This document shows positions 18,189-60,856 of a stretch of 64,000 nt of DNA, piece by piece (positions within the stretch are counted from its first letter, which is position 1; each line of letters begins with the position of its first letter). The position numbers and the translations under genes were made by a program. The notes under the pieces were generated by a model. The model saw only the letters and a program-made list of their open reading frames with translations, was not told the origin of the DNA and ran no database searches. The DNA comes from Nitrospirota bacterium (GTDB lineage Bacteria; Nitrospirota; Thermodesulfovibrionia; Thermodesulfovibrionales; JdFR-86): NCBI GenBank assembly GCA_963721805.1, contig CAVRJY010000002.1, positions 416,001 through 480,000 of the forward strand. Reading direction: 5' to 3'.

Positions 18189-18358
18189 AAAACGCTCCAA
18201 ATCGCTTGATACTGCGTTGGGCATCAAAGACTCGCCCTCTATGTACGCCCAAGTACACCATCGGGCGGTCTTCTCGCCCTGCCTTGTCTGAAGACGATTT
18301 GGGCGCGCTTTCGGGGGGCACGGACGAAGGACGCCCCCCGCGCCCCCAAGGTCAACGG
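18189..18358 (+). repeat. Long-hairpin repeat copy A (hairpin 18189-18311) plus GGTCAACGG boundary motif (18350-18358)
   Basis: Near-identical to 59276-59398; self-complementary ends CCAAATCG/CGATTTGG, apical TGTAC-N6-GTACA. Confidence 0.9.
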
Positions 18359-18477
18359 CTTAGTTTGATACTTATTAGACATGCATAATTCCGCATTAAT
18401 TCTATCCTTTGCATTGAGATGCGCATTTTTGTACAATACTAATGAACATCACTAATTAAACTTGTGAAAGGAAATAT

Positions 18478-18852
18478 ATGGCACAAGCAATGGGTTCGTT
18501 AGCTGCAATAGTAACAAGCATTGGTTCAGGTCTAAGCCAACTTATTAAAGAGTCTGCACAAGTATCTGATTCAAAGGACTTAAGCGTGATAGATAACGCA
18601 GTGAAACGGCAAACGTCGGAGCTTAAAATGGCTCATGCTCAAGCAAAAGTAGCTCAAGAGTTAGCAATTTCTGAAAGAATCAGCAATGCTAATGAGGTTA
18701 TCATTGAAGAATATTATGAGGGCGAGGGAAAAGGTAAAACTGGAGTATCAAGTGACGGCAGTAGTTTTGATATAGGTCTTTCAGTTGAGGGAAAACGTGT
18801 TAGTAAGAGGATTTATAGATTCAAAGGCTTACGCCCAATACCAAAAAAGTAA
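18478..18852 (+). CDS. AT-rich hypothetical protein (accessory cargo gene)
   Basis: 124-aa ORF with AAAGGA RBS in a visibly AT-rich segment beginning right after GGTCAACGG. Confidence 0.7.
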   Translation: MAQAMGSLAAIVTSIGSGLSQLIKESAQVSDSKDLSVIDNAVKRQTSELKMAHAQAKVAQELAISERISNANEVIIEEYYEGEGKGKTGVSSDGSSFDIGLSVEGKRVSKRIYRFKGLRPIPKK

Positions 18853-18880
18853 CAATCATTAATCTGTTAAGTTAAGTTTT

Positions 18881-18944
18881 CTAGTACCAGAACTCTGGAT
18901 ACCGTCGCGTCTTGGAGATGTTATTTGACGATAAGGGCTATGGT
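18881..18944 (-). pseudogene. Remnant duplicate of the 3' end of the HPP-family gene
   Basis: Reverse strand reads TIALIV[+1]NNISKTRRYPEFWY*; intact gene at 19838 ends LIALLVNNIPKTRRYPEFWY*. Confidence 0.85.
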
Positions 18945-18967
18945 AGGCATGCGTGGCAAGCTGGGGC

Positions 18968-19003
18968 AAAAAAAAGGAGCCTGCCCGTCGGGGCAGGCTC
19001 CTT
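18968..19003 (-). terminator. Rho-independent terminator of the beta-barrel gene
   Basis: AAGGAGCCTGCCC-gtcg-GGGCAGGCTCCTT stem followed by a U-tract on the minus strand. Confidence 0.85.
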
Positions 19004-19048
19004 GATATGTTCATTCAGCCGAGACCGGATACCCTCCGCTGGAGGGTC

Positions 19049-19624
19049 CTAGAACGAGAACCCTACGGTCAGGATTCCGGTGTGGAACAGAAGCGGATCG
19101 TTGGTGTGCTTGATAGTCGTAGCCTTCGCGTCGTATACCAGTTTCGTAAATAAGTTCTTCGTTATATCCCACCGGACGCCGACTCCGGCGTTATAAGAAA
19201 AATACGTATCATCAGTATCGGCTTCGTCGCTATGGACGGAGCTGAAATTGATGAAGCCGACGCCGGCGGTCAAGAGCGGGGTGATGTGGCCGTTTAAAAT
19301 ATTGTAATCGACGTTGAGGTCCATCCCAGTGAGGTTTACGTAGTCTTTATAACCCAGCACCCTGAGTTCCTTCTGGGACCAATTGACGTTTGCGTTGATG
19401 TTGAAGTTGTTCGTTATGTTGTAGCCATACCCCACCGCAACCGCTGCGGCAGGGTCGAATTTGATGTCCACATCCGAGTGTCTCGGCTCGGTCATGGCGT
19501 TGCTTGCGTACTCTGCGGAGACAAAGATCTCGTTGAGTCCCTGTCTGCTCCAGTCATCGGCGCTGCACGGCACGGATACTGCGAGAATAACCAGCGACAC
19601 CAGCAACAGCAATGCCTTCTTCAT
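19049..19624 (-). CDS. Outer-membrane beta-barrel protein (OMP_b-brl/OmpA-like TM domain)
   Basis: Signal peptide, alternating beta-strand pattern (FSYNAGVGVRW), C-terminal Phe (VGFSF); AAGGAGG RBS. Confidence 0.85.
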   Translation of the reverse strand: MKKALLLLVSLVILAVSVPCSADDWSRQGLNEIFVSAEYASNAMTEPRHSDVDIKFDPAAAVAVGYGYNITNNFNINANVNWSQKELRVLGYKDYVNLTGMDLNVDYNILNGHITPLLTAGVGFINFSSVHSDEADTDDTYFSYNAGVGVRWDITKNLFTKLVYDAKATTIKHTNDPLLFHTGILTVGFSF

Positions 19625-19725
19625 AGCCCCGTCCTCCTTAAATCTCTTTAGGCCTGCATGCAGCGCCTGTTTAACCGTGGCCCGAAAAGGGCCTTCGTTC
19701 CGATGCGTCCGCCCATATTGAATAA

Positions 19726-19754
19726 TATCTATACCAGTTTGCGATGGATGTCAA
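19726..19754 (-). promoter_or_regulatory. Sigma-70 promoter candidate for the beta-barrel gene
   Basis: Minus strand TTGACA-N17-TAGATA. Confidence 0.5.
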
Positions 19755-19837
19755 TACGAAACAGCCGGATCCGGGAAATGAATAACCTGATTGGAGGCGA
19801 TGCGAGACCGCGAACTGGCGCTTACCGGCGCTTTCCG

Positions 19838-20380
19838 TCAGTACCAGAACTCGGGATAACGTCTAGTCTTGGGGATGTTGTTTACGAGCAGTGCGATGAG
19901 CAGCAGTATCAATGCGCCGCCCCCGACCGGGAAGAGGGCGTACATGAATCCGAGGTTGTGGATCTTATCGCCGCCGATGACCGCGATCAAGGCGGTAGCG
20001 CCGCCGGGCGGGTGGAGCGTCCGTGTGGCGTGCATCAGGGCTATCGCTGTCGCTACTGCAACCGCCGCAGCGAGCCACAGCTCCGAGCCCAACGCCATCT
20101 GCGCGCCCACTCCGACGAGGGCCGAGAGCACGTGTCCGCCGACGAGGTTGCGGGGCTGCGCCAGGGGGCTCTTGATCGCGCCGTATATCAGCACCGCCGA
20201 TGCCCCGAACGAGCCAACGATCATCAACAGGTCGATCTTCTCAAACACGTTATAGTTCGCGTATGAGATGAGCCCTATGCCAAGGAACGAGCCGACCCAT
20301 GACCACGCGATCTCGGTGATACTCACGCGGGGCGGGCTGACCGTGGTGCCCCTCATCTTGCCGAGGTATGCGCCGAGCAT
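19838..20380 (-). CDS. HPP family membrane protein
   Basis: GSFGASAVL, SPLAQPRNLVGGH, LHPPGGATAL motifs. Confidence 0.93.
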   Translation of the reverse strand: MLGAYLGKMRGTTVSPPRVSITEIAWSWVGSFLGIGLISYANYNVFEKIDLLMIVGSFGASAVLIYGAIKSPLAQPRNLVGGHVLSALVGVGAQMALGSELWLAAAVAVATAIALMHATRTLHPPGGATALIAVIGGDKIHNLGFMYALFPVGGGALILLLIALLVNNIPKTRRYPEFWY

Positions 20381-20964
20381 TATTTGATCGCTGTCACGCG
20401 CGCACGGATGATGTCGTCGCGCGAGACGATTCCGGCGAGTTTCCCGGCGGCGTCCACGACCGGGACCCTGTTGATGTTCTTCGCCTCGAACAGGCCCATG
20501 ATCTCTTGGACGGTGGTCTCTGCGCTGACCGTGACCGCCGGGGAGGTCATGATGTCCCGCGCCAGCATCTTGCGAAGCGGCGCGGCGGTACAGCCCTTGC
20601 CGCTCAGGCATACCGCGATGATGTCCATTACGTGCGTCTTGTTGCCCATGTATTTGAGGAAGTCCTTCTCCGAGATCACGCCTGCCACGCTACCAGAATC
20701 ATCGAGCACCGGCAGCCCGGCGATACCCTTCCCGGCCATAAGAGCGGCGACCTCCTGTAGCGGGGTCGCGGTCTTTACCGAATAGACCGTGCGGGTCATG
20801 ATGTCAGCGGCCTTGAGCGAGCGGCGGATGCGGTCGAGGGCGTGGCGGAAGGCGTGCAGGTATATTTCCCTGAGATCGGCCGGGGTTACGTCGAGGTAGC
20901 CCCCTACTTCCTTCATCGCCTCGTATACGTCGGAGTCAGATACGCTTATGGGGTCATTGTCCAT
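20380..20964 (-). CDS. CBS domain protein
   Basis: Two CBS repeats (DIMT...LPVLD...GVISEKD; DIMT...VPVVD...GIVSRDD); coupled to the HPP gene. Confidence 0.9.
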   Translation of the reverse strand: MDNDPISVSDSDVYEAMKEVGGYLDVTPADLREIYLHAFRHALDRIRRSLKAADIMTRTVYSVKTATPLQEVAALMAGKGIAGLPVLDDSGSVAGVISEKDFLKYMGNKTHVMDIIAVCLSGKGCTAAPLRKMLARDIMTSPAVTVSAETTVQEIMGLFEAKNINRVPVVDAAGKLAGIVSRDDIIRARVTAIK

Positions 20965-21008
20965 GCCTACATCTTACACCGGGCAGGGCTAAGCCGCTAT
21001 GACGCGGG

Positions 21009-23248: not shown

Positions 23249-23286
23249 CGTTAATTATACCCTGATAGGGTAGAATATACGCTGAC

Positions 23287-27490: not shown

Positions 27491-27505
27491 GAAGCCTCCT
27501 CTCCT

Positions 27506-38261: not shown

Positions 38262-40979
38262 ATGAAATTTAAGTTTTTGCTCGTCTTCGGTCTTGTCTTG
38301 CTGATTGCGACCGCGGCGACGGCCGCGACGCTGCCCGGCATCTCCAGCCTGGGCACATTGTCATACGGTGAGAACTTCAGGCCAACTGACGTTGCGGTCG
38401 CAGCAAACGGCGACGCTTATGTCACGGACTGGTTTAACAGGGCCGTCGACGTGTTTGACTACAAGGGCAATTTCATCATGAAGGTCAGCCCTGACAGGAA
38501 CCTTTATCCGGTCTCGGTCGCGGTCGACTCCGCCGGCAGGGTGTATGTCGGGCTGTCTAACATCTCGACTGGCTCCGATTCAGGCGCTGTCAAGGTATAC
38601 GACGCCAGCCTTGCGAATCCCGTCACCCTCGGCAGCGGCCTTCATTCCGTTTCATCCATAGCCGTCGATGCAGCGAAGGTGTACGTTGCCGATACCGCCG
38701 ACAACGCGGTCAGGATTTACAACATTAACACCCGGGCCCTGATTTCGAGCATAACCTCGGTAAGCACACCCGTAGCCGTTGCGGTCGCCCCCTCCGGGGA
38801 CATTGTCGTGCTCGACAGGCCTACCGTGGCGCTGGGCGACGGTAAAAGCTTCGGTTCAAGGGGCCGGATATTCGGAAGCAACGGCGCACTGAAGGCGACG
38901 CTGTTCTCCTATCTGCCTACTGACGTCGGTGACCCGGTCGTGACGGCCCCCGGCGGAGCGGTAGTCGACGGCCAGGGCCGCATCTACGTGAGCGATGCAA
39001 CGAGCGGCGAGATCCAGGTATATGACGCTACCGGCGCCTATGTCGGCAAGCTTGAGCTTGCCGCAATCACGCAAAACGGGAAGGCCAAAGGAATGGCGAT
39101 GGGCGCCGACGGACGGCTCCTCGTTGCGGAGCCCGGCGCGGTCCAGATACTGGGCGTCGACGCCTACGTCGCACTTGATGTGACGGGCGGCCCGCTCGAC
39201 TTCAGCGGCTCGGGCTGCAGCCCGAGCATCGCATCTCAGAACCTTACCGTGGTGAATAACGGCAGTGGCACACTCGCATGGAGCTCCTCTGCCGATTCAG
39301 CCTGGATACTGCCGTCTCCATCCTCAGGTTCGATCAACGGCAGCGGCAACGATACCATCGCGGTGTCTATTGACGCCTCGACGCTCAGCGCGGGTATGCA
39401 CACAGGTTATGTCATTGTCAGCGCCCCCGGAGCCCAGGTGAAGGTAAAGGTGACAGTGACGATAGCCTCTTCTACAGGCATCTCCACTTCGCCTTCGGCG
39501 ATCAGCCTCGTCGCTGACAGCGTATCGAGCTCGACCGCAAACCTGAGCCTCTCTGTCGACAACGGGGTCTCGTGGACCGCAAATGCCGACCAGACGTGGG
39601 TCCAGATCACGCCCGCAAGCGGCACCTCAAGCTGGATCATACAGATATCGGCGGATGCGAGCGGCAAGACGACCGGCACGTACCCCGCTAGCGTCACCCT
39701 GAGCGCTGACGGCTGCAGCGCCGATACGGTAATAGTCCCGGTCACGCTCAACGTAGTCATCGGAGCGACCATCAACGTAACTACCAACATCGCGGCCGGC
39801 AACTACACTATCACAGGCCCCGGAGTCCCGATTCCCCCCGGCCACGGCAGCAACTCCTATTCGGTAAGCGCCGGAACATACACCATAACATATGGCACGG
39901 TGAAGGGTTACAAGGCCCCGGACCCGGTCACTCAGACGCTGCCTGACGGCGGCGTGCTGAACGCTTCCGGCACATACCTGAGCCTCGCCCAGACGGATCA
40001 GATAATCGTCAGCAGGGGCAGCGGCGTCTGCTCTTCGGACGAGACGGAGGCCATAAAGGCCTTCACCGCCAGCGGCGCCCTCAAGGCGTCCTATAAGGAA
40101 TACGACGGGTGCGGCGCCGCCGGAGCGCGGGTGAGCGGCCTGTTGACCGCTGCCGGCATAATGAACGCGTTTGACGCCGCGGCAGACCTGGTCGTGGGCG
40201 GCATTGAAGGCAACCAGGCCAACGCATTCAGCGGCACCGGCCCCGGCATGAACGTGCTCAGCAGCAATATCGCATTCAGCGGCAATATCGGCTCGGTGGC
40301 CACCGGCGACCTCAACGGAGATGGCGTCTCCGAGATCGTCGTTGGCGAGGCCGCTGGCGGAGCCGGACGATTCACGATCTATACCGTATCCGGCAGCTCC
40401 GTTACAAACTCTACTGACTTCGACAGCGGTTGCGCCGCCCTCGGGGTCTCGGTAGCGGCCGGCGACGTTGACGGTGACGGCATCCCCGAAGTCATAACGG
40501 CCTGCGCCACCGGAAGCAACCCGGCCCCTGAGGCGACGATCTGGTGGCTCGATCCGTCTGATTTCGTGACGGTTACCAAGAGCGCGGAAGTCGCACTTGG
40601 CGCGACCATGGACGGCGTTCAGCTGACGACAGGCGACGTGGACGGCTTCGGCACCCCTCTGATAATCGCATCCACAGTTCCAAACGCCACGGTAAGCTCG
40701 GCTACTGTACAGATGATGGATTCAACCGGCGCAGTGAAGCATACGGTCAAGGTCGGCTCCGGCGCCATTGGCAGGAACGTCTCGGTCGCCTCCGGCGACG
40801 TCAACGCCGACGGCGTGGCCGAGGTGGCGATAGGCCGGCCTGCACAGAAAATGAACGGCATGGTCAGCATAATACGGATCACGGGCAACAGCGCAGTGAC
40901 TCTCAAGGCCTTCCGGCCGTTCGGCAGCACCAGGATACATGGAACCAGGGTGTCCATTGGAAAGGTGGTAGCACAGTGA
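38262..40979 (+). CDS. Secreted NHL-propeller / BACON (Ig-like) / FG-GAP repeat protein
   Basis: Signal peptide; NHL repeats (PTDVAVAANGDAYVTD, PVSVAVDSAGRVYV, VDGQGRIYVSD); two W..S/A...W BACON-like modules; four GDxNGDG-type repeats; GGAGG RBS. Confidence 0.85.
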   Translation: MKFKFLLVFGLVLLIATAATAATLPGISSLGTLSYGENFRPTDVAVAANGDAYVTDWFNRAVDVFDYKGNFIMKVSPDRNLYPVSVAVDSAGRVYVGLSNISTGSDSGAVKVYDASLANPVTLGSGLHSVSSIAVDAAKVYVADTADNAVRIYNINTRALISSITSVSTPVAVAVAPSGDIVVLDRPTVALGDGKSFGSRGRIFGSNGALKATLFSYLPTDVGDPVVTAPGGAVVDGQGRIYVSDATSGEIQVYDATGAYVGKLELAAITQNGKAKGMAMGADGRLLVAEPGAVQILGVDAYVALDVTGGPLDFSGSGCSPSIASQNLTVVNNGSGTLAWSSSADSAWILPSPSSGSINGSGNDTIAVSIDASTLSAGMHTGYVIVSAPGAQVKVKVTVTIASSTGISTSPSAISLVADSVSSSTANLSLSVDNGVSWTANADQTWVQITPASGTSSWIIQISADASGKTTGTYPASVTLSADGCSADTVIVPVTLNVVIGATINVTTNIAAGNYTITGPGVPIPPGHGSNSYSVSAGTYTITYGTVKGYKAPDPVTQTLPDGGVLNASGTYLSLAQTDQIIVSRGSGVCSSDETEAIKAFTASGALKASYKEYDGCGAAGARVSGLLTAAGIMNAFDAAADLVVGGIEGNQANAFSGTGPGMNVLSSNIAFSGNIGSVATGDLNGDGVSEIVVGEAAGGAGRFTIYTVSGSSVTNSTDFDSGCAALGVSVAAGDVDGDGIPEVITACATGSNPAPEATIWWLDPSDFVTVTKSAEVALGATMDGVQLTTGDVDGFGTPLIIASTVPNATVSSATVQMMDSTGAVKHTVKVGSGAIGRNVSVASGDVNADGVAEVAIGRPAQKMNGMVSIIRITGNSAVTLKAFRPFGSTRIHGTRVSIGKVVAQ

Positions 40980-43900
40980 GAGGGGGATACTGGATCATGC
41001 CACGGAGCAGTTTCAACATGATAAGGCTGTTTCTGCTTTCAGCCGTTTTAACAGCCGCAGCGCTCGGCGTTGCCGGGACAGCCTTTGCGGTGCTGGACCC
41101 GCCGCACTCCAGGCTGGGCAGCTGCAGCGCATGCCACAATAATGCAGCGCAGAATGTCGCAAGCTACGGCAGCATAGACAACTCGCCGCTTAACCTGATG
41201 TGCATGTCCTGCCACGGCGTCAGTGCGCCGGAGATGATCACGCACTCGTCGAGGCAGGCCATAAACTACGAAAATAACAGGTTCGGTCCCTGGACCTGGG
41301 AGTGCGTGGATTGCCATAACCCCCACAACATGGACCAGGCCAGGCGGTATCCGGGCACTTACGCATCCGGCGGTTCGGCGCTGTATAACGGCCTGGTGGC
41401 CACGGTGCGCGACGGCGCTGCGAACCGGGTCGCTGTCAAAGGACCCGTCACGAGCCTGGCCGCGGATTCGCTGGTAGGGTATATTATCGAGTTCGGCACG
41501 GGCAAGGCGTTATCAAACAGCGGGACGTATTATATTATCGCGCACAACAACGGGGACGTCATTACTGTCGCTGATGCCGGTACTTTTATCAAGTCGCCCT
41601 ATGTCGTCGCAGGCCACTCTTACGCCATCAGCAACACGGTCCTGATCAAAACCGTCATCGACAGGGGCTATCCGGTGGTCAACTCCGAGGGCGTAGTGAT
41701 CGGGCCCGAGTACCCGGACGTGAAGTACTTTAATACCGCAGGGGCCCATTCCGGCGCCGACGCCGCCAATATGACGACGTCCCTCTGCGTCGTATGTCAC
41801 ACGAAGACCGAGCACAACAACATCGGCTATGAGATCGCGAAGTCCCAGCCCGGCGGCAGCGGCAACGACTACAACGCCGCTTACGCCAACTCCGCCTCGT
41901 ACGCGCACCCTACGTCGAACGGCGCGAGCTGCTCGGCCACCGAGTGCCACTATAATGCTGCCGGAGGCCTGGTAGTGCGCTGCACCCAGTGCCACGGCTA
42001 TTTCATGCTCGACAACGGCGGCCTCGTCAACACGGACGGAAGCGGCAACTCCAGCGCGACGGGGGTGGGGTCCGTCTTCGGCGTAAACGCCATCGGCGCC
42101 CACCCGACTCACCTTGTCAAATACGGTGAAATGGGCAAATGCGACATCTGCCACACCGGCGGCATGTATGACAGCGGCCTTGCGGACAGCTATATAGACA
42201 TCGGGTTTAACGCCACTACGGCTGGCATGTCAGCGCCGGGCAAGTTGGGCACGGGTTACTTCAGCCGGGACGCCGCCGCCTGGGGCATTACAAACGGTTA
42301 TGCAGTCATCGGCATGGCCAACATCGGTGGCGACAACGGCTGTGAGAGCCTTTACTGCCACAGCAACGGCATGCCTATCGACGCGTCTACCATTTACAGG
42401 CCGAAGAACTGGTTTACGGGCACCACTGTATGCGACTCCTGCCACGGCGACAAGGCCGATCCGTCAACGATGTCGACAGCGCATTCCATACACCTTGTCA
42501 ACGGCACAATCGACAGCGGCATCACGTGTTACAACTGTCACCACGACACTGTCAGCACCGCAAAAAACAGTTATGTCGAGGACGACCTTGCGGCAGGCAC
42601 AAAGCACGTAAACGGCACCCGTGACATAGTAAACGGGGGTTCGTTTGACAACGCTTCCGGCATCAGCTGCACGGTCAGCTTCATAAAGGTGAGCGGCGGC
42701 GACGGTGTGACCCCGACCTCCTGTTCGACCGTCAGCTGCCACAGCGGCACCGGAATCGGCGACCCAAGCATCACCGCCACCTGGAGCAATTCCTCAAGCT
42801 CCGACTTCTGCTCCCTCTGCCACTCGGATATCTACGGCCGCATGCATGGCGCGGCCGCGCACAAGCACAACATGGTCCTCAACGCAAGCGACGCCGACGC
42901 ATATCCTTCGCTTCCTGACACGTCCTGCCTGCAGTGCCATGAGAAGCACTCCGACAGGGCAGCCAGCGGCAACGGCAGGTCATTCAACCTCCGCCTGAGC
43001 AACACCGCGGCGCCAAGCGCGGTCAGCAACACCGACTACCACCCCGAAGACGCAAGCGGCGGTATCTGTCTTAGCTGCCACCAGGACCGTCAGGCAGGCA
43101 ACGGCGTAGCGCTGCCCCCCATCCCCAAGGCGGACGCGGTAGCCAATGGCGCCGTGCACATGTATGCGGTGGGGAGCACCTTCAAGGACGGCTCGCAACT
43201 CGGTGCGGTCTGCGTGAAGTGCCACAGCGAAAACGGCACGGCAACGTCTCCCGTCAGCTCGTTTGGCGCACAGACGGGCACCTTTAAGTTCGCCCCGCAT
43301 CAGGGCCCCCAGCAGTCGCTGCTCATCAATAACGCCAACACGAACCCCGACGCGGCCTGTATCATGTGCCACACCTCCGGGACCGATTACTACAACAACC
43401 TGAGCGCACCGGCCGTCTCGGCTCTGCTCAACTCCGGAGCGGTGAACAATGGCCTGGGCGCATTCACCTCGGGCCACCCGGTCGGCGGCGCGTACGCGGC
43501 CAACCGCATCGTTAACTCGATCGACCTGGCGGCTGGTTCGGTTAACCCTGCATCGGGCAGGTTCGTCTCCTGCGCCGACTGCCACAACGTTCACGCCACG
43601 CAGCGCAGCCCGCGCAGCGAGAGCGGCATCGTTATGGGCGACCAGTCAGACGCGGCGCACCAGTACCTGACTGATGCGAAACTGACCCTCGCCAATACCG
43701 CATGGGGTGCGGACAGGTGGAAGGGCTACCTGATCGTAATGACGACGGCCTCGGGCGGCGGCCTCGTGGACACGAGGTTCGTGCGCCAGGTGACCGGCAG
43801 CACCACGGACGGCACCGGAACGAAATTCACCTTCGGCCTGCCGTTTACGGACAAGGCCAGCTACGTCGGCCTGGACTGGAAGTATGAGGTCAGGAAACTC

Positions 43901-46900
43901 GACGGCTCGGCTGACCTGGGCACGAACGGCGCATGGGGCGTGCAGGTCGTCTACGCCGATGGCGCTGCCAAGGCTACCGCACCGGCCAACGATACCTTCG
44001 GGCTGAACTACACAGGCGCAGCGACCTCCAGCGCCAGCGCGGCCAACTCCAACACTGTCATTGGCGGCACGTTCAGCGCTACGCAGAACCTCAGGGGCAT
44101 GACCCTCTTTGCCAACAGCGGCCCCTGCGGCCCTGCTACAACGGTCGTCGGCGGGCAGACTATAGTCACGGCCGTCGGCTCGCAATATGCAATCCTGGAC
44201 AGCGACGCCACTTCAGTCACGGTCCCCGGTATAACCGGTTGCACGCCTGCGGCCGGTGCGGGCACCACCTACCAGATCCTGGACCTCTACAATAACGTGC
44301 TGGACTCCGGCGCCTGTGACACCGCGAGCGTCTCTGACCCGTCTGCATCGCAGAAGCTTTATCCGGCCCAGCCGGTGCAGACCATCAGCACCGGTAACGC
44401 CGGGTGCGCGGATTCGACCAAAAACTGGGTGTACGGCAAGTGGGCAGGCTACAAGTTCCACTGGACCGGCGGCGCATGCGCAAACAAGGGCCAGGACGAG
44501 ATAGTCGACTGGAGCCTTACGAATGCCGTTGCCTTCAGCCAGAAGACGACCGCGAAGTGCGCGATGAATGCCGGCGATGCCTATCTGGTCGCCGGGACCG
44601 TCGTGAGCGACAACTTCGTCAACCCTGTACCGGGCGCCGACGCGACCTACACCAAGGTCGCAAACGCCGCTAATCAGCGTGACGTATGCATGAAGTGCCA
44701 CAGCTACTACGCCTTCGGCAACACGGACTATCCCGCACTCGTAAGCGGCGGGCCAAGCAGGGGCAACTTTACCTGGGAGGGCACGGGCACTGACATTGCC
44801 CTGGAATTCAACCCGAACAACCTGGCCCACCACGCGGTTTACGCGGTCGGCAAAAACCAGCCACTGCCGACTGACGGCTCGGCGCTCGATACCGTTCCCA
44901 GCGGCCGCATGACGCTATCGAAGGTGACCGCCAAGTTCGCGCGGCAGCTCAACCCTCAGTGGTTCGGCGTCGACCCCGCCATATGGACGTGGGCCGGCAC
45001 CGCCTCGGGCGGGGTGGTTACGCTCACCACGGGCACACTCCCGAACAACGCCATGCCTGGCTGGTACGTCAGAACGTCAGGCGGCAACTGGTATCAGATC
45101 ACCCAGGTGACGGACGCCACCCACTTCAACGCGGCTGCCACCAACGGCAACCCGTGGGATGGCGGTGCGACCCCGATCCCCGACGGCTCGATCGGCATGG
45201 TCACCGCAGGCCTGGGCGACACGTTCGTCCCGCCATACGGGCCGTGGGCTCAGATCAATTGTTCCGATTGCCACGGCGGCACGCCTGAAGACCCGCAGGG
45301 CCCTCACGTCTCCGCCAACCGCTGGATCATGAAGGAGGCCGACGCCGAACTCAGGTTCGAAGGCATGGACACCATCGACACCGCTGGCGGCCACTCCTCC
45401 TATAACCCCGGCGTTAAGATAATCAAGTACGGCCAGATCTCGTATACGAGGCCCGGTGCTGCCGGCACCGTCCCCGAGAACGACGACACCGAGCTCCTGC
45501 CGCAGTACGTATGCTACAACTGCCACAGGGCCGACGTATACGGCACGGCCGAGGACGAGGGCTCAAGCAACTCCGAGAATTTCTCGGCTAGCGGACCGCT
45601 CAATGATTTCAACAACCTGTACGCCTACAAGGAGGGACCGAGGAACAACAAGCTCTCCAGGCAGCCACACGGCGCATCGGTCCTGTACGGCACGGCCCAC
45701 TGCCAGATCCCGACGCAGAAGTTCGGCACGTGGGGCATATTCTGCAAGAACTGCCACCTTGGCGAGCGCATGGGCGCGGTGCACGGCACCAACGGCCTCA
45801 ACAACACGCCGGACTCGTCGATGAGCGCGGACGGGAATCCTGACTACGACTCCAACCCGATCGGGATAGTAAGGGCCACCTCCTGCGTAAACAACGGGAC
45901 GGACTTAAATACCAGCTGCGCGGCCCCTGTTGCAGCGCTTGCCACCCCGTATGGCGGCGACCACTCGCTGATCGGATTTAGCATGCGGTTTAACGAGGAC
46001 ACCGCCAACAACTGTTACGCCACTACCCCGGCCGTCATTGACAATATCGGTAACACGATATATTTCAAGACCGTGGACAAGACCAAGCTGGGCTGCACTC
46101 CCACAACCAGCTCCACGTTCAACCTCTATGACCGCGGCCTAATCAATCCCGCGACGGGTGATTACACTGGCGTGACCCCTGCATACAACGGTACGTGCGA
46201 TCAGGCTACAACCGGCGTGTCGGTCTGCAACACGTCGTCGCTTGCCGACCAGACCGTTAACAAATACGCCGGCTACGTCCTGCAGTACACTAACGGGGCA
46301 TGTAACGGCATAAACGCGCTTGTCACGGGCAACACGAAAAGCGGAAGTAATGCGGTGCTCGCCGTAGGCGCTGTCAACGGCACGCTCTGTGTGCCGCGCA
46401 GTGGAGGTTATCCTGACGACGGTCTTGTCAGCCTGAGCAGCGTGTTCGGCAAGTGCACGAACTCAATCGACTACGGTGACGGAGTCATGGGGATCTACAA
46501 CTGTGTGGACGTCACGAAGAACTTCGGCGGAGCCTCGGGGGACAATGCCCTGGTTGGCCAATATATAGCGATTATCAGCCTCACGACCGCAACCGCCACC
46601 CCCGCATGTCTGGGCCAGCCCCTGCGGGTCATGGGCAACCTCTACAACAGCCTACTCGTCAACGGGTTGGACGGCAACGGCGGGCTTTGCAACGTTGCCG
46701 CGGCTACAAATTACAGCTTTGTCGGAGCCAACCGGACGAGCATCACCAAGGGCGGCCATATCTCGAAGAACCAGGGAAAGAGGTTCCTCAACGGCGGAGG
46801 CTGGAGCGGCTGGGACAACGTGAACAACCTTAAGGCTCTCGATAGGGCCGGTACCAACTACCAGGGCGCCTGCTATGTCACGGCGGCCACGAACAACAAC

Positions 46901-47020
46901 GTCTCCAACTGCGGCAGTGCGCACGGGGCTGATAATTCGAACGTTAGCGGCGCAGTTGGCGGCCACGGCGGCTTCTCGACGTATGCCAACCCTGCGACTT
47001 ACGACTATGACGCCAACTAG
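40976..47020 (+). CDS. Giant secreted multiheme c-type cytochrome (18 CxxCH + 3 CxxxxCH)
   Basis: Signal peptide ending AFA; motifs counted in the translation; GTGA overlap with the upstream gene. Confidence 0.92.
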   Translation: MRGGYWIMPRSSFNMIRLFLLSAVLTAAALGVAGTAFAVLDPPHSRLGSCSACHNNAAQNVASYGSIDNSPLNLMCMSCHGVSAPEMITHSSRQAINYENNRFGPWTWECVDCHNPHNMDQARRYPGTYASGGSALYNGLVATVRDGAANRVAVKGPVTSLAADSLVGYIIEFGTGKALSNSGTYYIIAHNNGDVITVADAGTFIKSPYVVAGHSYAISNTVLIKTVIDRGYPVVNSEGVVIGPEYPDVKYFNTAGAHSGADAANMTTSLCVVCHTKTEHNNIGYEIAKSQPGGSGNDYNAAYANSASYAHPTSNGASCSATECHYNAAGGLVVRCTQCHGYFMLDNGGLVNTDGSGNSSATGVGSVFGVNAIGAHPTHLVKYGEMGKCDICHTGGMYDSGLADSYIDIGFNATTAGMSAPGKLGTGYFSRDAAAWGITNGYAVIGMANIGGDNGCESLYCHSNGMPIDASTIYRPKNWFTGTTVCDSCHGDKADPSTMSTAHSIHLVNGTIDSGITCYNCHHDTVSTAKNSYVEDDLAAGTKHVNGTRDIVNGGSFDNASGISCTVSFIKVSGGDGVTPTSCSTVSCHSGTGIGDPSITATWSNSSSSDFCSLCHSDIYGRMHGAAAHKHNMVLNASDADAYPSLPDTSCLQCHEKHSDRAASGNGRSFNLRLSNTAAPSAVSNTDYHPEDASGGICLSCHQDRQAGNGVALPPIPKADAVANGAVHMYAVGSTFKDGSQLGAVCVKCHSENGTATSPVSSFGAQTGTFKFAPHQGPQQSLLINNANTNPDAACIMCHTSGTDYYNNLSAPAVSALLNSGAVNNGLGAFTSGHPVGGAYAANRIVNSIDLAAGSVNPASGRFVSCADCHNVHATQRSPRSESGIVMGDQSDAAHQYLTDAKLTLANTAWGADRWKGYLIVMTTASGGGLVDTRFVRQVTGSTTDGTGTKFTFGLPFTDKASYVGLDWKYEVRKLDGSADLGTNGAWGVQVVYADGAAKATAPANDTFGLNYTGAATSSASAANSNTVIGGTFSATQNLRGMTLFANSGPCGPATTVVGGQTIVTAVGSQYAILDSDATSVTVPGITGCTPAAGAGTTYQILDLYNNVLDSGACDTASVSDPSASQKLYPAQPVQTISTGNAGCADSTKNWVYGKWAGYKFHWTGGACANKGQDEIVDWSLTNAVAFSQKTTAKCAMNAGDAYLVAGTVVSDNFVNPVPGADATYTKVANAANQRDVCMKCHSYYAFGNTDYPALVSGGPSRGNFTWEGTGTDIALEFNPNNLAHHAVYAVGKNQPLPTDGSALDTVPSGRMTLSKVTAKFARQLNPQWFGVDPAIWTWAGTASGGVVTLTTGTLPNNAMPGWYVRTSGGNWYQITQVTDATHFNAAATNGNPWDGGATPIPDGSIGMVTAGLGDTFVPPYGPWAQINCSDCHGGTPEDPQGPHVSANRWIMKEADAELRFEGMDTIDTAGGHSSYNPGVKIIKYGQISYTRPGAAGTVPENDDTELLPQYVCYNCHRADVYGTAEDEGSSNSENFSASGPLNDFNNLYAYKEGPRNNKLSRQPHGASVLYGTAHCQIPTQKFGTWGIFCKNCHLGERMGAVHGTNGLNNTPDSSMSADGNPDYDSNPIGIVRATSCVNNGTDLNTSCAAPVAALATPYGGDHSLIGFSMRFNEDTANNCYATTPAVIDNIGNTIYFKTVDKTKLGCTPTTSSTFNLYDRGLINPATGDYTGVTPAYNGTCDQATTGVSVCNTSSLADQTVNKYAGYVLQYTNGACNGINALVTGNTKSGSNAVLAVGAVNGTLCVPRSGGYPDDGLVSLSSVFGKCTNSIDYGDGVMGIYNCVDVTKNFGGASGDNALVGQYIAIISLTTATATPACLGQPLRVMGNLYNSLLVNGLDGNGGLCNVAAATNYSFVGANRTSITKGGHISKNQGKRFLNGGGWSGWDNVNNLKALDRAGTNYQGACYVTAATNNNVSNCGSAHGADNSNVSGAVGGHGGFSTYANPATYDYDAN

Positions 47021-47039
47021 GTCGTAGCCGCGCACCAAA

Positions 47040-47084
47040 TGCGCAGGCGCTGGACGGGCTCCTGGCCCGCCTAGCGCCTGCGCA
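47040..47084. other. Strong stem-loop just after the cytochrome stop codon
   Basis: TGCGCAGGCGCT...AGCGCCTGCGCA arms, no clear U-tract. Confidence 0.55.
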
Positions 47085-47269
47085 TACATAAAGTAAAATC
47101 AGCTTCCCTGTAATTTTTTGCATGGACTCCATCTCGACTCCGTAAACAGCGAGCTTGCAAGGCTAAAAATGAAATCCACATCAGGGCCGCCCAAAGCATT
47201 TCAGACTACATATTGATATATCTATGGGGGCGGTTGGCCCCGCCCCTTGGAAAAGGTGCCCGTGGCACC

Positions 47270-47345
47270 CCGATGGCGTACTTTGACGTACATAGAGGCC
47301 GAGTCTTTGAAGCCCAGCGCAGTATCGAACGATTTGGCGCGTTTT
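47270..47345 (-). repeat. Long-hairpin repeat copy B (5' half only)
   Basis: Minus strand AAAACGCGCCAAATCGTTCGATACTGCGCTGGGCTTCAAAGACTCGGCCTCTATGTACGTCAAAGTACGCCATCGG, then similarity stops. Confidence 0.88.
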
Positions 47346-47420
47346 GAAGAAAGGCCTCGTTGCCAGCCAGGGGATTAGGCGATATACTTAGGTTAGAGAG
47401 TGAAAACTAGGAGGTTACTA

Positions 47421-47861
47421 ATGGCAAAGTTGATTGTAGTGGCAGACATGGGACACTTCAAGGCATACAAGCTGACACATGAGATTCAGGAGAGCCCGCA
47501 CCTCGAGCTCGTCAGCAGCATCGACAACATCGGCGCGCACGGCAAGATGTCCGAGAAGGTCACGGACGGCGCAGGCAGGTTCTCGGAGAGCGGCGCCAAG
47601 GCCGGAGCTGCAAGGGGATACGGGGAGCCGCACAGCGCCGAAACCGAGGGCCGTAAGCGGGGGATAGAACTGCTCGCCGGTGAGATAGGCAGATTAGTAA
47701 AAAGCGAGGGAGTCGCGATATGGCATCTCGCGGCCGCAAAGTCGATAAACAGCCAGCTCGTAGAGAGCCTCGACGAGGACGCGAAGGCGAAGCTCAGGAA
47801 AAACCTTACCTCGGACCTGACTAATACGCCGCCCTCGGAGCTCCTTGCACACTTTGCCTGA
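47421..47861 (+). CDS. Host attachment family (baeRF1-like) protein
   Basis: LIVVADMGHFKAY, VTDGAGRF, DLT C-terminal pattern; AGGAGG RBS. Confidence 0.7.
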   Translation: MAKLIVVADMGHFKAYKLTHEIQESPHLELVSSIDNIGAHGKMSEKVTDGAGRFSESGAKAGAARGYGEPHSAETEGRKRGIELLAGEIGRLVKSEGVAIWHLAAAKSINSQLVESLDEDAKAKLRKNLTSDLTNTPPSELLAHFA

Positions 47862-54200: not shown

Positions 54201-54223
54201 CTTTAATTATACCAAGACCGGGA

Positions 54224-55675: not shown

Positions 55676-55715
55676 CGGATATTCTAACTGATTCGCATGA
55701 GTTCAGGCGAGCGGG

Positions 55716-56264: not shown

Positions 56265-56460
56265 ATCTTCCACGCCGGGATTGTAGCACATACCCGCCGT
56301 GTAATACTCACCCCATGTCCTGGATATCTTAATCCCGTTTGAATCCAGATCCCGATTTATGGCTGTAATTATTACAGCTGAGGCAGATGCTACTATATAG
56401 ATGTTACATACAGCCTTTCTTGTCCGATAAAAAAAGATGGAAATACAATGGTTTTTGCAT

Positions 56461-56476
56461 TGGCACAGTAGATGCA
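56461..56476 (+). promoter_or_regulatory. Sigma-54 promoter candidate
   Basis: TGGCAC-AGTAG-ATGCA with GG-N10-GC spacing; palindrome GCTGTAAT-T-ATTACAGC at 56362-56378 upstream. Confidence 0.65.
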
Positions 56477-56486
56477 TTATAAACCA

Positions 56487-56600
56487 CAGACAAGAATGTA
56501 CGAAACCCCGGGCGATGCATAAAAAGCCCGGTTCAGGGTTGTCTTAAAATGAGGAAGGAGACCCTCCCCCCATACAAGGGTCTCCTTCCTCACCCCCCAA
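56487..56600 (+). ncRNA. Candidate structured sRNA or 5' leader
   Basis: Follows the sigma-54 promoter; nested stems AGACAA/TTGTCT and CCGGGC/GCCCGG, then a perfect 16-bp stem with C-rich loop. Confidence 0.35.
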
Positions 56601-56728
56601 TCCCCCTCGGCCAGCTTACGCCGCAAGTTATCCCGCATCTCATCCCGCCGCTGGATTCTTACGCGGCCATGGACTATTATATAGATCGACAAATACGGGC
56701 GGCTCGCCGTCCATCCGAGGTGGGGCAT

Positions 56729-58075
56729 ATGGCATCGGCTTATAACGCATGGTTTCAGTGCATCAACGAGAAGTGCGGCCAGAAGTACAGCACCAGCGAT
56801 ATCATCTATAGCTGCCGCAAGTGCGGCTCGCTCCTGGAGGTCCGCCACGACATGGCCGCCCTCGCCCAAAAGAGCGGCGAGCAGTGGAAGAAGATCTTCG
56901 AAGACCGCTACAAGTCCACCCAGTGGCCTTACGGCTCCGGCGTCTGGGGCAAGAAGGAATGGATACTCCCGAACATCGACGACGACAACATCGTCTCGCT
57001 TTACGAGGGCGGGACTAATCTCTTCTGGGCCGAGCGCTACGGAAAGATGATCGGGATCGACAACCTCTGGCTCAAGCTCTGCGGAAACTCCCACAGCGGC
57101 TCGTTCAAGGATTTGGGGATGACCGTGCTCGTCTCTAACGTCAAGCAGATGATCCATGACGGCGCGCCGATCAAGGCAGTCGCCTGCGCCTCGACCGGGG
57201 ACACCTCGGCCGCGCTCGCGGTATACTGCGCAGCGGCGGGGATACAGTCGATAGTCCTCCTGCCCAAGGGAAGGATATCGGTGGCCCAGCTCGTGCAGCC
57301 TATAGCCAACGGCTCGCTCGTCATCGAGCTTGACACCGACTTCGACGGCTGCATGTCCGTGGTCAAGGAGATCTCCAAAGACCCGAACATCTACCTCGCC
57401 AACTCCATGAACTCCATCCGCATCGAGGGCCAGAAGACCGTAGGAATCGAAATCGTCCAGCAGTTCGACTGGGCCGTGCCGGACGTCATCATCATCCCCG
57501 GCGGCAACCTCGGCAACGTCTCGGCGCTCGGAAGCGGGCTGCTGATGCTTCGCGACCTCGGGATGATCACGAAGCTCCCGCGCATCGTCGTGGCGCAGGC
57601 TGAGCGCGCCAATCCGCTCTACCGCTCGTACATGAAAAACTTCGAGTCCTTCGAGCCGATAGTCGCCCAGAAGACCCTCGCAAGCGCGATCCAGATCGGC
57701 AACCCAGTAAGCATCGCAAAGGCGATCCGCACGCTTAAGCAGTTTCAGGGGATCGTCATGGACGCAACAGAGCAGGAGCTCGCTGATGCCGCTGCGCTTG
57801 GGGACCTGACCGGGATGTTCAACTGCCCGCACACGGGCGTGGCGCTCGCGGTGCTCCAAAAGCTGCTCAAGGCCGGGAAGATCGACCGCTCCGAGCACGT
57901 CGTCGTCATCTCGACCGCGCACGGGCTCAAGTTCACGGACTTCAAGGTCCGCTACCACGAGGGGACGCTGGACTTCCCCTGCAAGTATTCCAACAAACCA
58001 ATCGAGCTTCCGCCGACCGTCGACGCGGTCAAGGAAGCCCTCGACCACGCACTCAAGACAAGGAGAATCCTCTAG
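56729..58075 (+). CDS. thrC: Threonine synthase (plant-like type)
   Basis: [12 protein letters not shown]-lysine motif, [32 protein letters not shown]. Confidence 0.93.
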
Positions 58076-59272
58076 ATGAAAAACGAAAATAAATGGGGGC
58101 CGTCGACGACCGCCATCCACGGCACCGGAAAAACCGCCAAGGCCTACCATGCGGTGTCCACTCCGATTGTACAGACATCGAACTACTACTTCGACAAGGC
58201 CGACGAGGTCGAGGACTTCATGCGCGCAAAGGGGCAGGGCAAGGTCATCCGCGAGCACGAGTACGCCCGCTACGGAAACCCGACCCAGCAGATATGCGAG
58301 GCCAAGCTCGCGGCAATCGAGGGGGCCGAGCGCGCTGTCCTCTATTCCTCCGGCATGAGCGCGGTGATACTCGGCATCATGACCCTGATGCAGCCCGGCA
58401 AGCACATCATCTTCACGAACGACTGCTACCGCCAGACGCGCGACTTCGCCAACAATCTGCTCTCGAAGTTCGGGATCGAGATATCGCTCGTCGACCCGAC
58501 GGCCGAGGCCATCGCTGCCGCGATCAAGCCCAACACAAACATCATATTCACCGAGTCCCCGACCAACCCGTACCTGCGCATCCTCGACATCCCGGCCATC
58601 GTGAAGATCGCAAAGGAGCGCGGCATCATCACGATGATAGACGCCACGCTCGGCACGTCTTACAACATTAAGCCCATCGAGCTGGGCGTGGACGTGGTCA
58701 TCCACTCGGCGACCAAATACCTCGGCGGCCACAACGACCTCATGGCCGGCGTCTGCCTCGGCAGCAACGAGATGATGACCGCGTTTTACAAGATGCAGCG
58801 CATGGTCGGCTCTACGCCCGGCCCGCTTACATGCTTCCTGCTCGAGCGCGGCTTGAAAACCTTCGGCATGCGCATGGAGCACCACAACCGCGCAGGCCTC
58901 GCGGTGGCCCAGATGCTTGAGGCCCACCCGAAGATCGAGAAGGTCTGGTATCCGGGCCTCGCCTCGCACCCCGACCATGCGATCTACAAAGAGCAGATGA
59001 AGGGCGGCGGCAGCGTGATAAGCTTCCTCGTCAAGGGCGGGGATAAGGAGACGCGCCAGTTCATCGACGCGCTGGAGCTTTACCTGATCACCCCGAGCCT
59101 GGGCGGCAGCGAGAGCCTGGTCACGCAGATGTGGGCTATGTCGTTTTACGATTATCCGGCGTCGTTCCGTCAGGAGATCGGGATGGTGGACAATCTCGTG
59201 CGTCTGGCTCTCGGGCTGGAGGACATCGACGACCTTATCGCTGACCTTAAACAAGCCCTCGACAAGATTTAG
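58076..59272 (+). CDS. Cystathionine gamma-synthase family PLP enzyme (plant-like)
   Basis: YARYGNPT, ESPTNP, HSATKYLGGHND, SLGGSESL, RLALGLED. Confidence 0.88.
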   Translation: MKNENKWGPSTTAIHGTGKTAKAYHAVSTPIVQTSNYYFDKADEVEDFMRAKGQGKVIREHEYARYGNPTQQICEAKLAAIEGAERAVLYSSGMSAVILGIMTLMQPGKHIIFTNDCYRQTRDFANNLLSKFGIEISLVDPTAEAIAAAIKPNTNIIFTESPTNPYLRILDIPAIVKIAKERGIITMIDATLGTSYNIKPIELGVDVVIHSATKYLGGHNDLMAGVCLGSNEMMTAFYKMQRMVGSTPGPLTCFLLERGLKTFGMRMEHHNRAGLAVAQMLEAHPKIEKVWYPGLASHPDHAIYKEQMKGGGSVISFLVKGGDKETRQFIDALELYLITPSLGGSESLVTQMWAMSFYDYPASFRQEIGMVDNLVRLALGLEDIDDLIADLKQALDKI

Positions 59273-59275
59273 GGG

Positions 59276-59445
59276 AAAGCGCTCCAAATCGCTTGATACT
59301 GCGTTGGGCTGCGAAGACTCGGCCTCTATGTACGTCACAGTACACCATCGGCCGGTCTTCTTGCCCTGCCTTGTCTGAAGACGATTTGGGCGCGCTTTGC
59401 GAAGTGCGCGGCCCAGCCGCTGCCTCCGCGCCTCGCGGTCAACGG
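59276..59445 (+). repeat. Long-hairpin repeat copy C (hairpin 59276-59398) plus CGCGGTCAACGG (59434-59445)
   Basis: AAAGCGC/GCGCTTT, CCAAATCG/CGATTTGG, GAAGAC/GTCTTC, CGGCC/GGCCG, TGTAC/GTACA nested arms; starts 3 nt after a stop codon. Confidence 0.92.
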
Positions 59446-59495
59446 CATTGAGTAAAGTTACATTATTCATAAAATGAGTAAGGAGAGAAAATAGT

Positions 59496-60668
59496 TTGCC
59501 AGAAGGTTTTATTATAATGCAGATTGGCGACGCAGCTCTTGACCGAGTCTGCGAGCAAGCCATTGTTCCAGCCATGAAAACATGCGGCTTAGAGCCAAAG
59601 CGAGTTGACAAACATAACTCAGGCGGCTTATTGAAAAGTGAAATTATAGGGTTTATTGAACGGTCTGAGATTATTATTGCAGATCTGACTAATGAACGAC
59701 CAAATTGCTACTTAGAAGTTGGTTATGCCATGGGAATTGATAAATTTAGAAACCTTATTCTTACTGTACGAGAAGACCATAATCCAGAGAGTCCAAATCA
59801 CATTAAAGGGAAAAAGGTTCATTTTGATTTAAGTGGATATGATATTTTGTTCTGGTCGCCAGATCGGCTCGACGAATTTAAAGAAGAACTTGCAAAGCGC
59901 ATCCAGAAACGTCAGGCTATTATATCGCCGATAAGCGAGAAAGAGATCAGAACTCCATGGGATGAGGTTTGGATTGAAACCCATAGAAAAATAGCTTGGG
60001 AAGGGCTAAAATCAACTGGGAAGAAAGGCTTTTTGGAAATCAGGTTTGCCCTTGATCATCCGAAACCAAATAAGTCTCAGCATGAACTTTTGAAGGCTGC
60101 ACAAGAGGCTCCAATAAGTACCTTCGGCTGGCCTATAGGAGTCTATCTGTCAACGGATGATTTTAGGCCGAAGCCAAAAGCTGATGGTATCGTAGCCGAA
60201 ATATCTGTTGCAAATGAAAGAAGGGTGACATTTGATTACTGGTCGTTACGTAAAACCGGAGATTTATATTTGCTAAAAACAATCTTTGAGGATGATCAAG
60301 AGCCAGATAAAATCTATTTTAATACCAGAATCATACGTGTGACAGAGGCCATTCTTTATTGTGCAAGGTTATATAATCTGTTAGGCATCGATCCAACGGT
60401 GCATGTTAATATTGCAATTCGGCATGGCGGACTAAAAGGGCGAGTATTAACAGCAATAGGTGGCAGAAGGGTGTTTGATTGGGGCAAGTGTTCTGAAGAT
60501 GAGGCTGAATTTGAAGTGCATTCCTCAATATCCGGTTTAGAGTCAAATCTTGTTGATTTAGTCAAGCAAATTACTTCACCCCTATTTGTGTTATTCGATT
60601 TTACAGAATTTAATGATTCTATCTATCAAGACATAGTCGATAAATTTGTTGCCGGAAGGGTCACTTAA
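59496..60668 (+). CDS. AT-rich protein with N-terminal nucleoside 2-deoxyribosyltransferase-like domain
   Basis: IIADLTNERPNCYLEVGYAMG and HFDL motifs; AT-rich codon usage unlike neighbours. Confidence 0.8.
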   Translation: MPEGFIIMQIGDAALDRVCEQAIVPAMKTCGLEPKRVDKHNSGGLLKSEIIGFIERSEIIIADLTNERPNCYLEVGYAMGIDKFRNLILTVREDHNPESPNHIKGKKVHFDLSGYDILFWSPDRLDEFKEELAKRIQKRQAIISPISEKEIRTPWDEVWIETHRKIAWEGLKSTGKKGFLEIRFALDHPKPNKSQHELLKAAQEAPISTFGWPIGVYLSTDDFRPKPKADGIVAEISVANERRVTFDYWSLRKTGDLYLLKTIFEDDQEPDKIYFNTRIIRVTEAILYCARLYNLLGIDPTVHVNIAIRHGGLKGRVLTAIGGRRVFDWGKCSEDEAEFEVHSSISGLESNLVDLVKQITSPLFVLFDFTEFNDSIYQDIVDKFVAGRVT

Positions 60669-60697
60669 GGCGTGCAATGATTCAAAATCATAATATT

Positions 60698-60856
60698 CCG
60701 TTGACCGCGCGCACGATCCCACATAAGCAAACTTAAAGCGCGAGAAATCGTGTCAGACAAGGAACGGCGAGGAAAACGTCCGATGGTGTACTGTGATGTA
60801 CATAGAGGACGGATTTCCGCAGCCGTGACGCAGTATCACGCGATTTGGCGCGACTT
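60698..60856 (-). repeat. Long-hairpin repeat copy D (hairpin 60735-60856) plus CGCGGTCAACGG (60698-60709, minus strand)
   Basis: Diverged copy retaining GATACTGCG, CCTCTATGTAC, GTACACCATCGG, CCTTGTCTGA; starts 2 nt after the cytochrome stop codon. Confidence 0.88.

Follow-up and report, generated by a model that had tools for sequence, protein, structure and literature searches.

REPINs are doublets of REP sequences that are moved by RAYT transposases. ERIC (IRU) and Correia (NEMIS) elements are imperfect palindromes of ~100–150 bp that occupy transcribed intergenic regions near gene ends, in either orientation, and act at the RNA level. Mobile insertion cassettes (MICs) hold passenger genes between inverted repeats of the insertion sequence (IS) type and contain no transposase. 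The attC sites of integrons, which border single-gene cassettes, are folded sites of 57–141 nt in which structure and extrahelical bases are read rather than sequence. Here we describe a repeat of ~123 nt that resembles each of these in part. It occurs in a 64,000-nt stretch of DNA from a Nitrospirota bacterium (assembly GCA_963721805.1, contig CAVRJY010000002.1, positions 416,001–480,000), referred to below as the window.

The window contains three complete copies of the repeat (c1, c3 and c4) and one truncated copy (c2). Each complete copy can fold into a long hairpin and is followed, after a spacer of 38 nt in c1 and c3 and 28 nt in c4, by an invariant 9-mer, GGTCAACGG, which marks the border of a small low-GC island. 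Island 1, behind c1, carries the open reading frame (ORF) ORF124; c3 and c4 face each other across island 2, which carries ORF390. We propose that the element is an undescribed, lineage-restricted foldback repeat, similar to REPINs or to miniature inverted-repeat transposable elements (MITEs), that is associated with the edges of small cargo islands, an explanation to which we give an even chance.

Passages of the REPIN description (PMC3116915) present these elements as extragenic hairpins of ~70–110 nt, composed of two inverted arms and predicted to fold in single-stranded DNA or mRNA. According to the same passages, the REP sequences at both ends are conserved and the middle is a less conserved or variable spacer, compensatory changes across the hairpin are common, and truncated singlets are decay products (PMC3116915). 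The repeat described here likewise consists of two inverted arms that fold into one extragenic hairpin, with compensatory changes and a truncated copy. It differs in being most conserved in its apical and central parts and not at its ends, and no RAYT was found among the 62 ORFs of the window that were scanned. We know of no REPINs that are accompanied, at a set distance, by a separate 9-mer or by cargo islands.

Compared by description and not by sequence, the repeat shares with ERIC and Correia elements the form of an imperfect palindrome near gene ends. However, nothing similar to it is present in 5,426 E. coli genomes, and the host phylum is a different one. To our knowledge, coupling to a 9-mer and an island is not a feature of the ERIC/IRU or Correia families. 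The arrangement c3-ORF390-c4 resembles a MIC in that one passenger gene lies between inverted repeats without a mobility gene. Unlike in MICs, the repeats are modules of 160–170 nt (the 123-nt hairpin, a non-conserved spacer and a terminal repeat of 9–15 nt), no target-site duplication is seen, there is no known parent IS, and the module of island 1 is one-sided. Terminal inverted repeats as in MITEs are present, whereas a target-site duplication was not found. With attC the repeat has in common that a folded site of similar length lies at the borders of single-gene insertions; it lacks the RYYYAAC...GTTRRRY core, does not form an array, is not accompanied by an integrase among the scanned ORFs, and follows the host gene instead of the cassette gene.

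Copies of the repeat and their fold

A covariance model trained on c1, c3 and c4 was run over both strands of the 64 kb with filters off. The preliminary description of this DNA had placed the complete copies as listed in Table 1 and half a copy at 47270–47345 of the minus strand. All four were confirmed on these strands, with the likeness of c2 to c1 extending past 47345 to 47354. The model found no further copies; the best other match (E 0.07) is the reverse strand of c3. The motif CCTCTATGTAC occurs exactly four times in the window, always inside a copy, and GATACTGCG exactly five times, in the four copies and at 19575.

BLAST identities are 92.4% over 119 nt between c1 and c3, 88.4% over 86 nt between c1 and c2, and 89.7% over 68 nt between c3 and c2. 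In global alignments, 113/123 positions are identical between c1 and c3, 94/124 between c1 and c4, and 99/124 between c3 and c4. Since c3 resembles c1, which lies 41 kb away, more than its neighbour c4, the copies did not arise by simple duplication, as the preliminary description had held.

Each complete copy forms a single long hairpin of four helices, on either strand and with both RNA and DNA parameters. The hairpin base is AAAGCGC...GCGCTTT, the arms are inverted repeats along the whole hairpin length, and the reverse strand also scores with the covariance model. With RNA parameters, the reverse strands of c1, c3 and c4 fold at −57.8, −59.6 and −54.0 kcal/mol (sense strands in Table 1). 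Across both strands the fold z-scores range from −5.0 to −7.3 with RNA parameters and from −3.7 to −6.0 with DNA parameters, the architecture is alike, and the consensus fold energies of −48.0 for one strand and −45.7 for the other favour neither. Such near-equal folding is more in keeping with a DNA palindrome than with a strand-specific RNA. The truncated c2 folds no better than shuffled sequences (z 0.12).

In the RNA folds, GATACTGCG and CCTTGTCTGA mostly pair with one another via G·U pairs, and an open internal loop is found only in the DNA centroid folds. Three G·U pairs on the sense strand are preserved in every complete copy. The irregularities of the hairpin, bulges as well as mismatches, are identical in c1, c3 and c4 despite the 20–24% divergence of c4, which argues for a constraint on the folded form.

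Base pairs were counted in the model-fitted alignment of the three complete copies, in which 94.9% of 137 cells are standard pairs. Six of the 46 pairs are altered on both sides with pairing preserved, one of them in three states (C-G/G-C/U-A), and a single pair is altered on one side only. These values were matched in only 1–2 of 500 partner shuffles, and sliding the partners by 1–3 columns left 0–2 double-changed pairs. An independent RNAalifold prediction gave 6/40 pairs preserved through two-sided change. The stem swaps named earlier are real: besides the three-state pair, they comprise G-C to A-U and A-U to G-C in the AAGAC/GGAAA stem and G-C to C-G in the GGGC/ACGGC stem. Nearly all compensation falls on the c4 branch.

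Conservation is highest in the apical and central blocks, while variable sites cluster in stems P2–P3, in the apical loop and in the middle of P1. There are six invariant runs of at least 8 nt, a number equalled in 0.6% of 20,000 permutations, which indicates clustering of the variable sites; the longest run, 13 nt, is unremarkable (p 0.47).

Two readings of the hairpin itself were discarded. A 16-codon ORF from the ATG in CTATGTAC to the TGA in GTCTGA shows mostly amino-acid-changing differences between copies and has no ribosome-binding site. A K-turn or C/D-box interpretation of UGAUAC...CUGA was dropped, as the bulge geometry does not fit.

The copies also differ at their 5' boundaries. 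c1 and c2 share at least 9 additional bases, CCTTTNTTC, and possibly ~26, upstream of the hairpin, which c3 and c4 lack. In place of its 3' arm, c2 has a short hairpin followed by TTTT, which was read from the sequence and is absent from the terminator-scan list. A promoter-like site with a weak consensus match at 47461–47433 of the minus strand is directed at c2. Together with c2 and the short hairpin it could give a small antisense transcript upstream of a Host_attach-family gene, although each of these signals is weak.

Relatives of the repeat were sought in several collections. The whole window has no Rfam match at gathering thresholds, and no named family was matched in Rfam, plasmids, phages or E. 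coli genomes, in agreement with the preliminary description, which could not assign one. At E values up to 10, Rfam gave four matches within 59200–61000, none of which overlaps a copy. A protein profile of the translated hairpin, searched against 1.84 billion proteins, had four matches at E ~1e-4, and the three inspected are unrelated tandem-repeat proteins. No further match to the hairpin ends was found in the window, plasmids, phages or E. coli genomes. In literature text, the matches listed for CCTCTATGTAC concern animal or viral work, as judged by titles and the beginnings of abstracts. The repeat motifs are not found in the searched supplements of the Geobacter/Pelobacter papers PMC2996986, PMC2700814 and PMC3543383, which has no bearing on the family.

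The 9-mer and the two low-GC islands

The preliminary description ended with the hairpin and lacked its tail, the spacer with GGTCAACGG, as well as the position of this tail at the borders of low-GC islands. GGTCAACGG has four exact matches in the window, against 0.47 expected; three follow the complete copies and the fourth lies inside a cytochrome gene. The two largest low-GC tracts of the window begin right after it. The 300 nt behind each 9-mer have a GC content of 37–39%, among the lowest 0.2–0.8% of 300-nt segments, in a window with 60.8% GC overall. The ends of island 2 form a 15-nt inverted repeat that includes the 9-mer. On the right side of island 1, a weak candidate for a degenerate inverse 9-mer is located at 18899–18909.

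The spacers of c1 and c3 align no better than shuffled sequences (24 matches, compared to a mean of 20.9 and a maximum of 28). Because the c1 and c3 hairpins are identical at 113 of 123 positions and the spacers are unalike, the hairpin, and not the whole tail, is the copied unit. The hairpin and the 9-mer are two separately conserved modules. A conserved structure in the spacer was rejected (fold z −0.5 to +1.1), an IHF site at the 9-mer fits c1 alone, and an alternative in which the 9-mer would pair with the 5' arm is lost in c4.

A reading frame through the 9-mer, G GTC AAC GGN, reaches a stop codon at an equal position in the three copies, after VNGLV, VNGIE and VNGIL. It has no start codon, and in c4 it stays open for just 14 codons. 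The frame is probably a chance feature of AT-rich DNA.

Neither island has a mobility gene, and each contains a single gene with a horizontally scattered distribution. ORF124, a small protein whose N-terminus is hydrophobic, is encoded with a GC content at third codon positions (GC3) of 27%. Of its 71 homologues, those with names come from Photobacterium, Chryseobacterium, Sporosarcina and Pseudoalteromonas. The ORF124 of the window itself is missing from the database matches and may be unannotated in the source.

The N-terminus of ORF390 is TIR-like, with residues 46–105 matching the PADLOC TIR-effector model at E 2.6e-11; no Pfam family matches at threshold. ORF390 has 1252 homologues. Among the 120 matches listed, its own protein excluded, identity ranges from 54 to 71%; names are given for, among others, a Hodarchaeota archaeon and a Nitrospinae bacterium, both represented by metagenome-assembled genomes (MAGs). 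The AlphaFold model has a mean predicted local distance difference test score (pLDDT) of 83.8 and no PDB match at E ≤0.001. One plasmid protein, distantly homologous to the C-terminal part, bears the annotation 'RNA-binding domain-containing protein', and an atlas search with ORF390 gave only unnamed clusters and TIR/SEFIR leads with scores below 0.9. ORF390 represents a conserved single-gene family of ~390 residues with a TIR-like N-terminal domain and a further, C-terminal domain, and is possibly a defence gene. The cargo of both islands is foreign, and its genes are widely scattered.

Table 1 Positions in the window of the repeat copies, their tails, the islands and associated features. CM E, E value with the covariance model.
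Feature	Position	Strand	Remark
c1, complete 123-nt hairpin	18189..18311	+	CM E 3e-27; RNA fold −50.6 kcal/mol, z −5.8
c1 spacer, 38 nt, GC-rich	18312..18349	+	no homology to c3 spacer
GGTCAACGG, left border of island 1	18350..18358	+
Low-GC island 1 (~37–40% GC)	18359..18930	.	right border approximate
Promoter-like site, island 1	18408-18437		just inside the 9-mer
ORF124	18478-18852	+	island 1
c2, 5' arm and apical stem, broken after CCATCGG	47270..47354	-	CM E 0.021
Short hairpin GGTGCC-ACG-GGCACC then TTTT	47251..47269	-	in place of c2 3' arm; read from sequence
Additional upstream homology of c1 and c2	18160-18188 and 47355-47380 (-)		5' boundary differs between subtypes
c3, complete hairpin	59276..59398	+	CM E 6e-29; RNA fold −59.8 kcal/mol, z −6.9
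c3 spacer, 38 nt	59399..59436	+
GGTCAACGG, left border of island 2	59437..59445	+	part of 15-nt inverted repeat with 60695-60709
Low-GC island 2 (33–46% GC)	59446..60697	.
Promoter-like site, island 2	59448-59475		just inside the 9-mer
ORF390	59496-60668	+	island 2; database form begins at ATG 59517
GGTCAACGG, right border of island 2	60698..60706	-
c4 spacer, 28 nt	60707..60734	-
c4, complete 122-nt hairpin, most diverged copy	60735..60856	-	CM E 4e-20; RNA fold −42.2 kcal/mol, z −5.0
G GTC AAC GGN frame	18351-18368, 59438-59455, 60705-60688 (-)

Gene context and host

All four copies lie between ORFs. c1 starts 20 nt past the stop codon of a Usp-domain gene (17287–18168, plus strand), c3 starts 3 nt past that of a Cys/Met PLP-enzyme gene (58076–59272, plus strand), and c4 starts 2 nt past that of a multihaem cytochrome gene (60859–62334, minus strand). 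The complete copies are thus located just downstream of a stop codon and in the sense of that gene, as first noted. With c3 and c4 forming one inverted pair between convergent genes, and c2 antisense to both of its flanking genes, this rule has two independent cases. There is no classical terminator between stop codon and hairpin. As the copies start 2–20 nt after the stops, they are also transcribed, as hairpins in the 3' untranslated region (3'-UTR) of the upstream genes. The TAG stop codon common to all three host genes is not significant, since TAG ends 18 of 51 genes in the window.

The window belongs to the core chromosome, with recA, recX, alaS, miaA, queA, ybeY, phoH, pyrE and large multihaem cytochromes. 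ARAGORN found no tRNA or tmRNA genes in it and therefore no tRNA/tmRNA integration site at the island borders. RecA is 79–84% identical to proteins named as coming from Nitrospirota, Thermodesulfovibrionales or Dissulfurispiraceae MAGs, with one further match at 91%, which indicates a Nitrospirota-like host lineage with few sampled relatives. A Geobacter origin, suggested by a Geobacter-type cytochrome motif, is ruled out by RecA.

Further features were noted along the window. Adjacent genes at 38262–47020 of the plus strand encode a 905-residue protein with NHL, FG-GAP and BACON-like repeats and a 2014-residue multihaem cytochrome. The latter contains the Geobacter-type CxxxxCH...CxxCH motif, which is notable in a Nitrospirota-like genome. 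A palindrome with 21-nt arms is located 3' of the cytochrome gene, at 47039–47085. Near c3, a frame of 1044 residues at 56477–59611 of the minus strand crosses the copy and runs antisense to the well-supported PALP and Cys/Met PLP genes. It has no family match and is a shadow ORF of the type common in high-GC DNA, not a gene.

Explanations for the repeat

Symmetric folding, a decayed half copy in the opposite orientation, copying of the hairpin without its spacer and the precedent of REPINs point to a MITE/REPIN-like element. It would be an imperfect DNA palindrome with the hairpin itself as the copied unit, and the trait maintained would be its folding into one long irregular hairpin, as single-stranded DNA or as a cruciform. 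A structure-specific transposase or recombinase encoded outside the window may recognise this folded form. c2, truncated, antisense and not folding, fits a decay remnant left by mobile repeats. It is the exact 9-mer and the GC break that connect complete copies with the edges of small cargo insertions. In the proposed mechanism, complete copies are coupled to GGTCAACGG at 28 or 38 nt from the hairpin 3' end, and GGTCAACGG would act as the terminal inverted repeat of small low-GC islands. The hairpins would then mark the borders of non-autonomous cargo insertions, either because they form subterminal segments of these ends or because they serve as landmarks for landing. Their transcription as 3'-UTR hairpins may add an effect at the RNA level.

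A number of observations weigh against this proposal. We infer the mobility of the repeat, and neither a target-site duplication, nor an enzyme, nor an outside copy was found. By eye, no duplication is present at the ends of c1, c3 and c4, at the island ends or at the outer ends of c3...c4, though the fuzzy 5' boundary of the copies makes this less certain. Among 62 distinct ORFs of the window (20 compared with Pfam, 47 with NCBIfam) there is no transposase, integrase or RAYT. blastn of the unit gave no match in plasmids, phages or the 5,426 E. coli genomes, which include ERIC, REP/BIME and related repeats. A 20-base core pattern had a single locus in the GTDB representative genomes of 185,579 species, a chance match within an ORF of an alphaproteobacterial MAG. 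The absence of relatives elsewhere is only weakly tested by these searches, above all for diverged copies. Two islands underlie the island association, since c3 and c4 flank a common one, and in island 1 a single side carries a hairpin. Selection could act on an RNA function, since the full copies are co-transcribed with the genes before them. The pair evidence comes from three full sequences in an alignment fitted to the model; at six of its 46 pairs one copy does not pair, in five cases c4, which also has a gap at one further pair. Stems are also not enriched in variable columns (21/92 paired against 7/26 internal-loop columns, Fisher p 0.79).

These results modify two earlier claims. Stems had been said to covary and loops to be invariant; the pair-keeping changes stand, while the contrast is weaker than claimed, given the column counts above and the pairing of GATACTGCG with CCTTGTCTGA in the RNA fold. 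Selection on a folded structure is supported by pairing kept through two-sided change in 6/46 pairs, matched in 1–2 of 500 shuffles. However, c2 does not fold and is still 88–90% identical, so that much of the invariance among c1, c2 and c3 may reflect recent ancestry. Pair-preserving change in a DNA palindrome could, moreover, come from arm-to-arm templated correction without selection.

A rival that builds on the last point is an ordinary young MITE whose structure is not selected. Its arms would be kept complementary by intrastrand template switching, and its proximity to the islands would reflect a shared preference for the gaps between convergent genes. The 8–12% differences among c1, c2 and c3, a broken copy hardly more diverged than the intact ones, stems no more variable than loops and the ordinary length of the longest invariant run all agree with it. 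Arm-to-arm correction should, however, remove bulges and mismatches, yet these are identical in the three full copies, c4 included. The six invariant runs of at least 8 nt are also rare among permutations. An exact 9-mer at 28, 38 and 38 nt, combined with a drop in GC to the lowest 1% in all three copies, is unlikely to come from a loose preference, and we consider the unselected MITE quite unlikely. A cis-acting 3'-UTR RNA, with mobility secondary or ancient, is a credible if unlikely alternative. Such an RNA would block 3'–5' decay, end transcription, or insulate convergent genes or the island from read-through. The three full, co-oriented copies 2–20 nt past a stop codon argue for it, as do the lack of a classical terminator before the hairpin, the very stable RNA folds (−42 to −60 kcal/mol), the three conserved sense-strand G·U pairs and the compensatory changes. 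It is weakened by antisense folds that are equal to or better than the sense folds, by only TTT following the stem in c1 and c3, by the truncated c2 lying antisense to both neighbours, and by there being two independent cases of co-orientation, and it leaves the invariant 9-mer and the low-GC DNA behind it unexplained. A regulatory leader or small RNA controlling ORF124 from c1 and ORF390 from c3, each of which lies upstream of a co-oriented island gene, is hardly credible: each gene is preceded by a promoter-like site that lies past the hairpin and the 9-mer, c4 is directed at the 3' end of ORF390, ORF124 and ORF390 are not related to each other, and Rfam has no match.

A bolder possibility, to which we assign a slim chance, is that the hairpin and GGTCAACGG together form the folded recognition site of a novel gene-capture system, in which a structure-reading recombinase inserts single-gene cargo, here ORF390 and ORF124, directly behind core genes. 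The hairpin would then serve for docking, and the 9-mer, at a distance of 28 or 38 nt (one or several helical turns), for crossover or as the terminal site. Slimmer still is the chance of a recombination site that follows attC-like logic with unrelated sequence, with strand exchange at or near GGTCAACGG. Such a site would agree with the constant size and irregularities of a hairpin whose stems covary, with the sharp junction at the 9-mer and foreign single-gene DNA beyond it, with the break of c2 exactly at a conserved internal loop, and with the TIR-like cargo protein. Against it, the hairpin base has no AAC...GTT core, the hairpins lie behind high-GC host core genes instead of cassette genes, c3 and c4 are inverted and form no array, the 9-mers around island 2 are inverted and not direct repeats, and no integrase is found among the 62 ORFs scanned.

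What the repeat means for its host depends on whether the coupling of hairpin and island border holds. If it fails, a lineage-specific foldback repeat remains, which would be useful for annotation, by explaining shadow ORFs and gene ends that extend into repeats, and might serve as a lineage marker. If gene capture were true, integron-like logic would have been assembled from unrelated parts in a little-studied phylum. Many reported islands carry no mobility gene. Should the coupling of the MITE/REPIN-like repeat to island borders be found genome-wide, the hairpin would provide a sequence handle for small cargo or defence insertions that lack mobility genes, and would lead towards the enzyme by which islands of this kind are moved in an uncultured lineage of the Nitrospirota.

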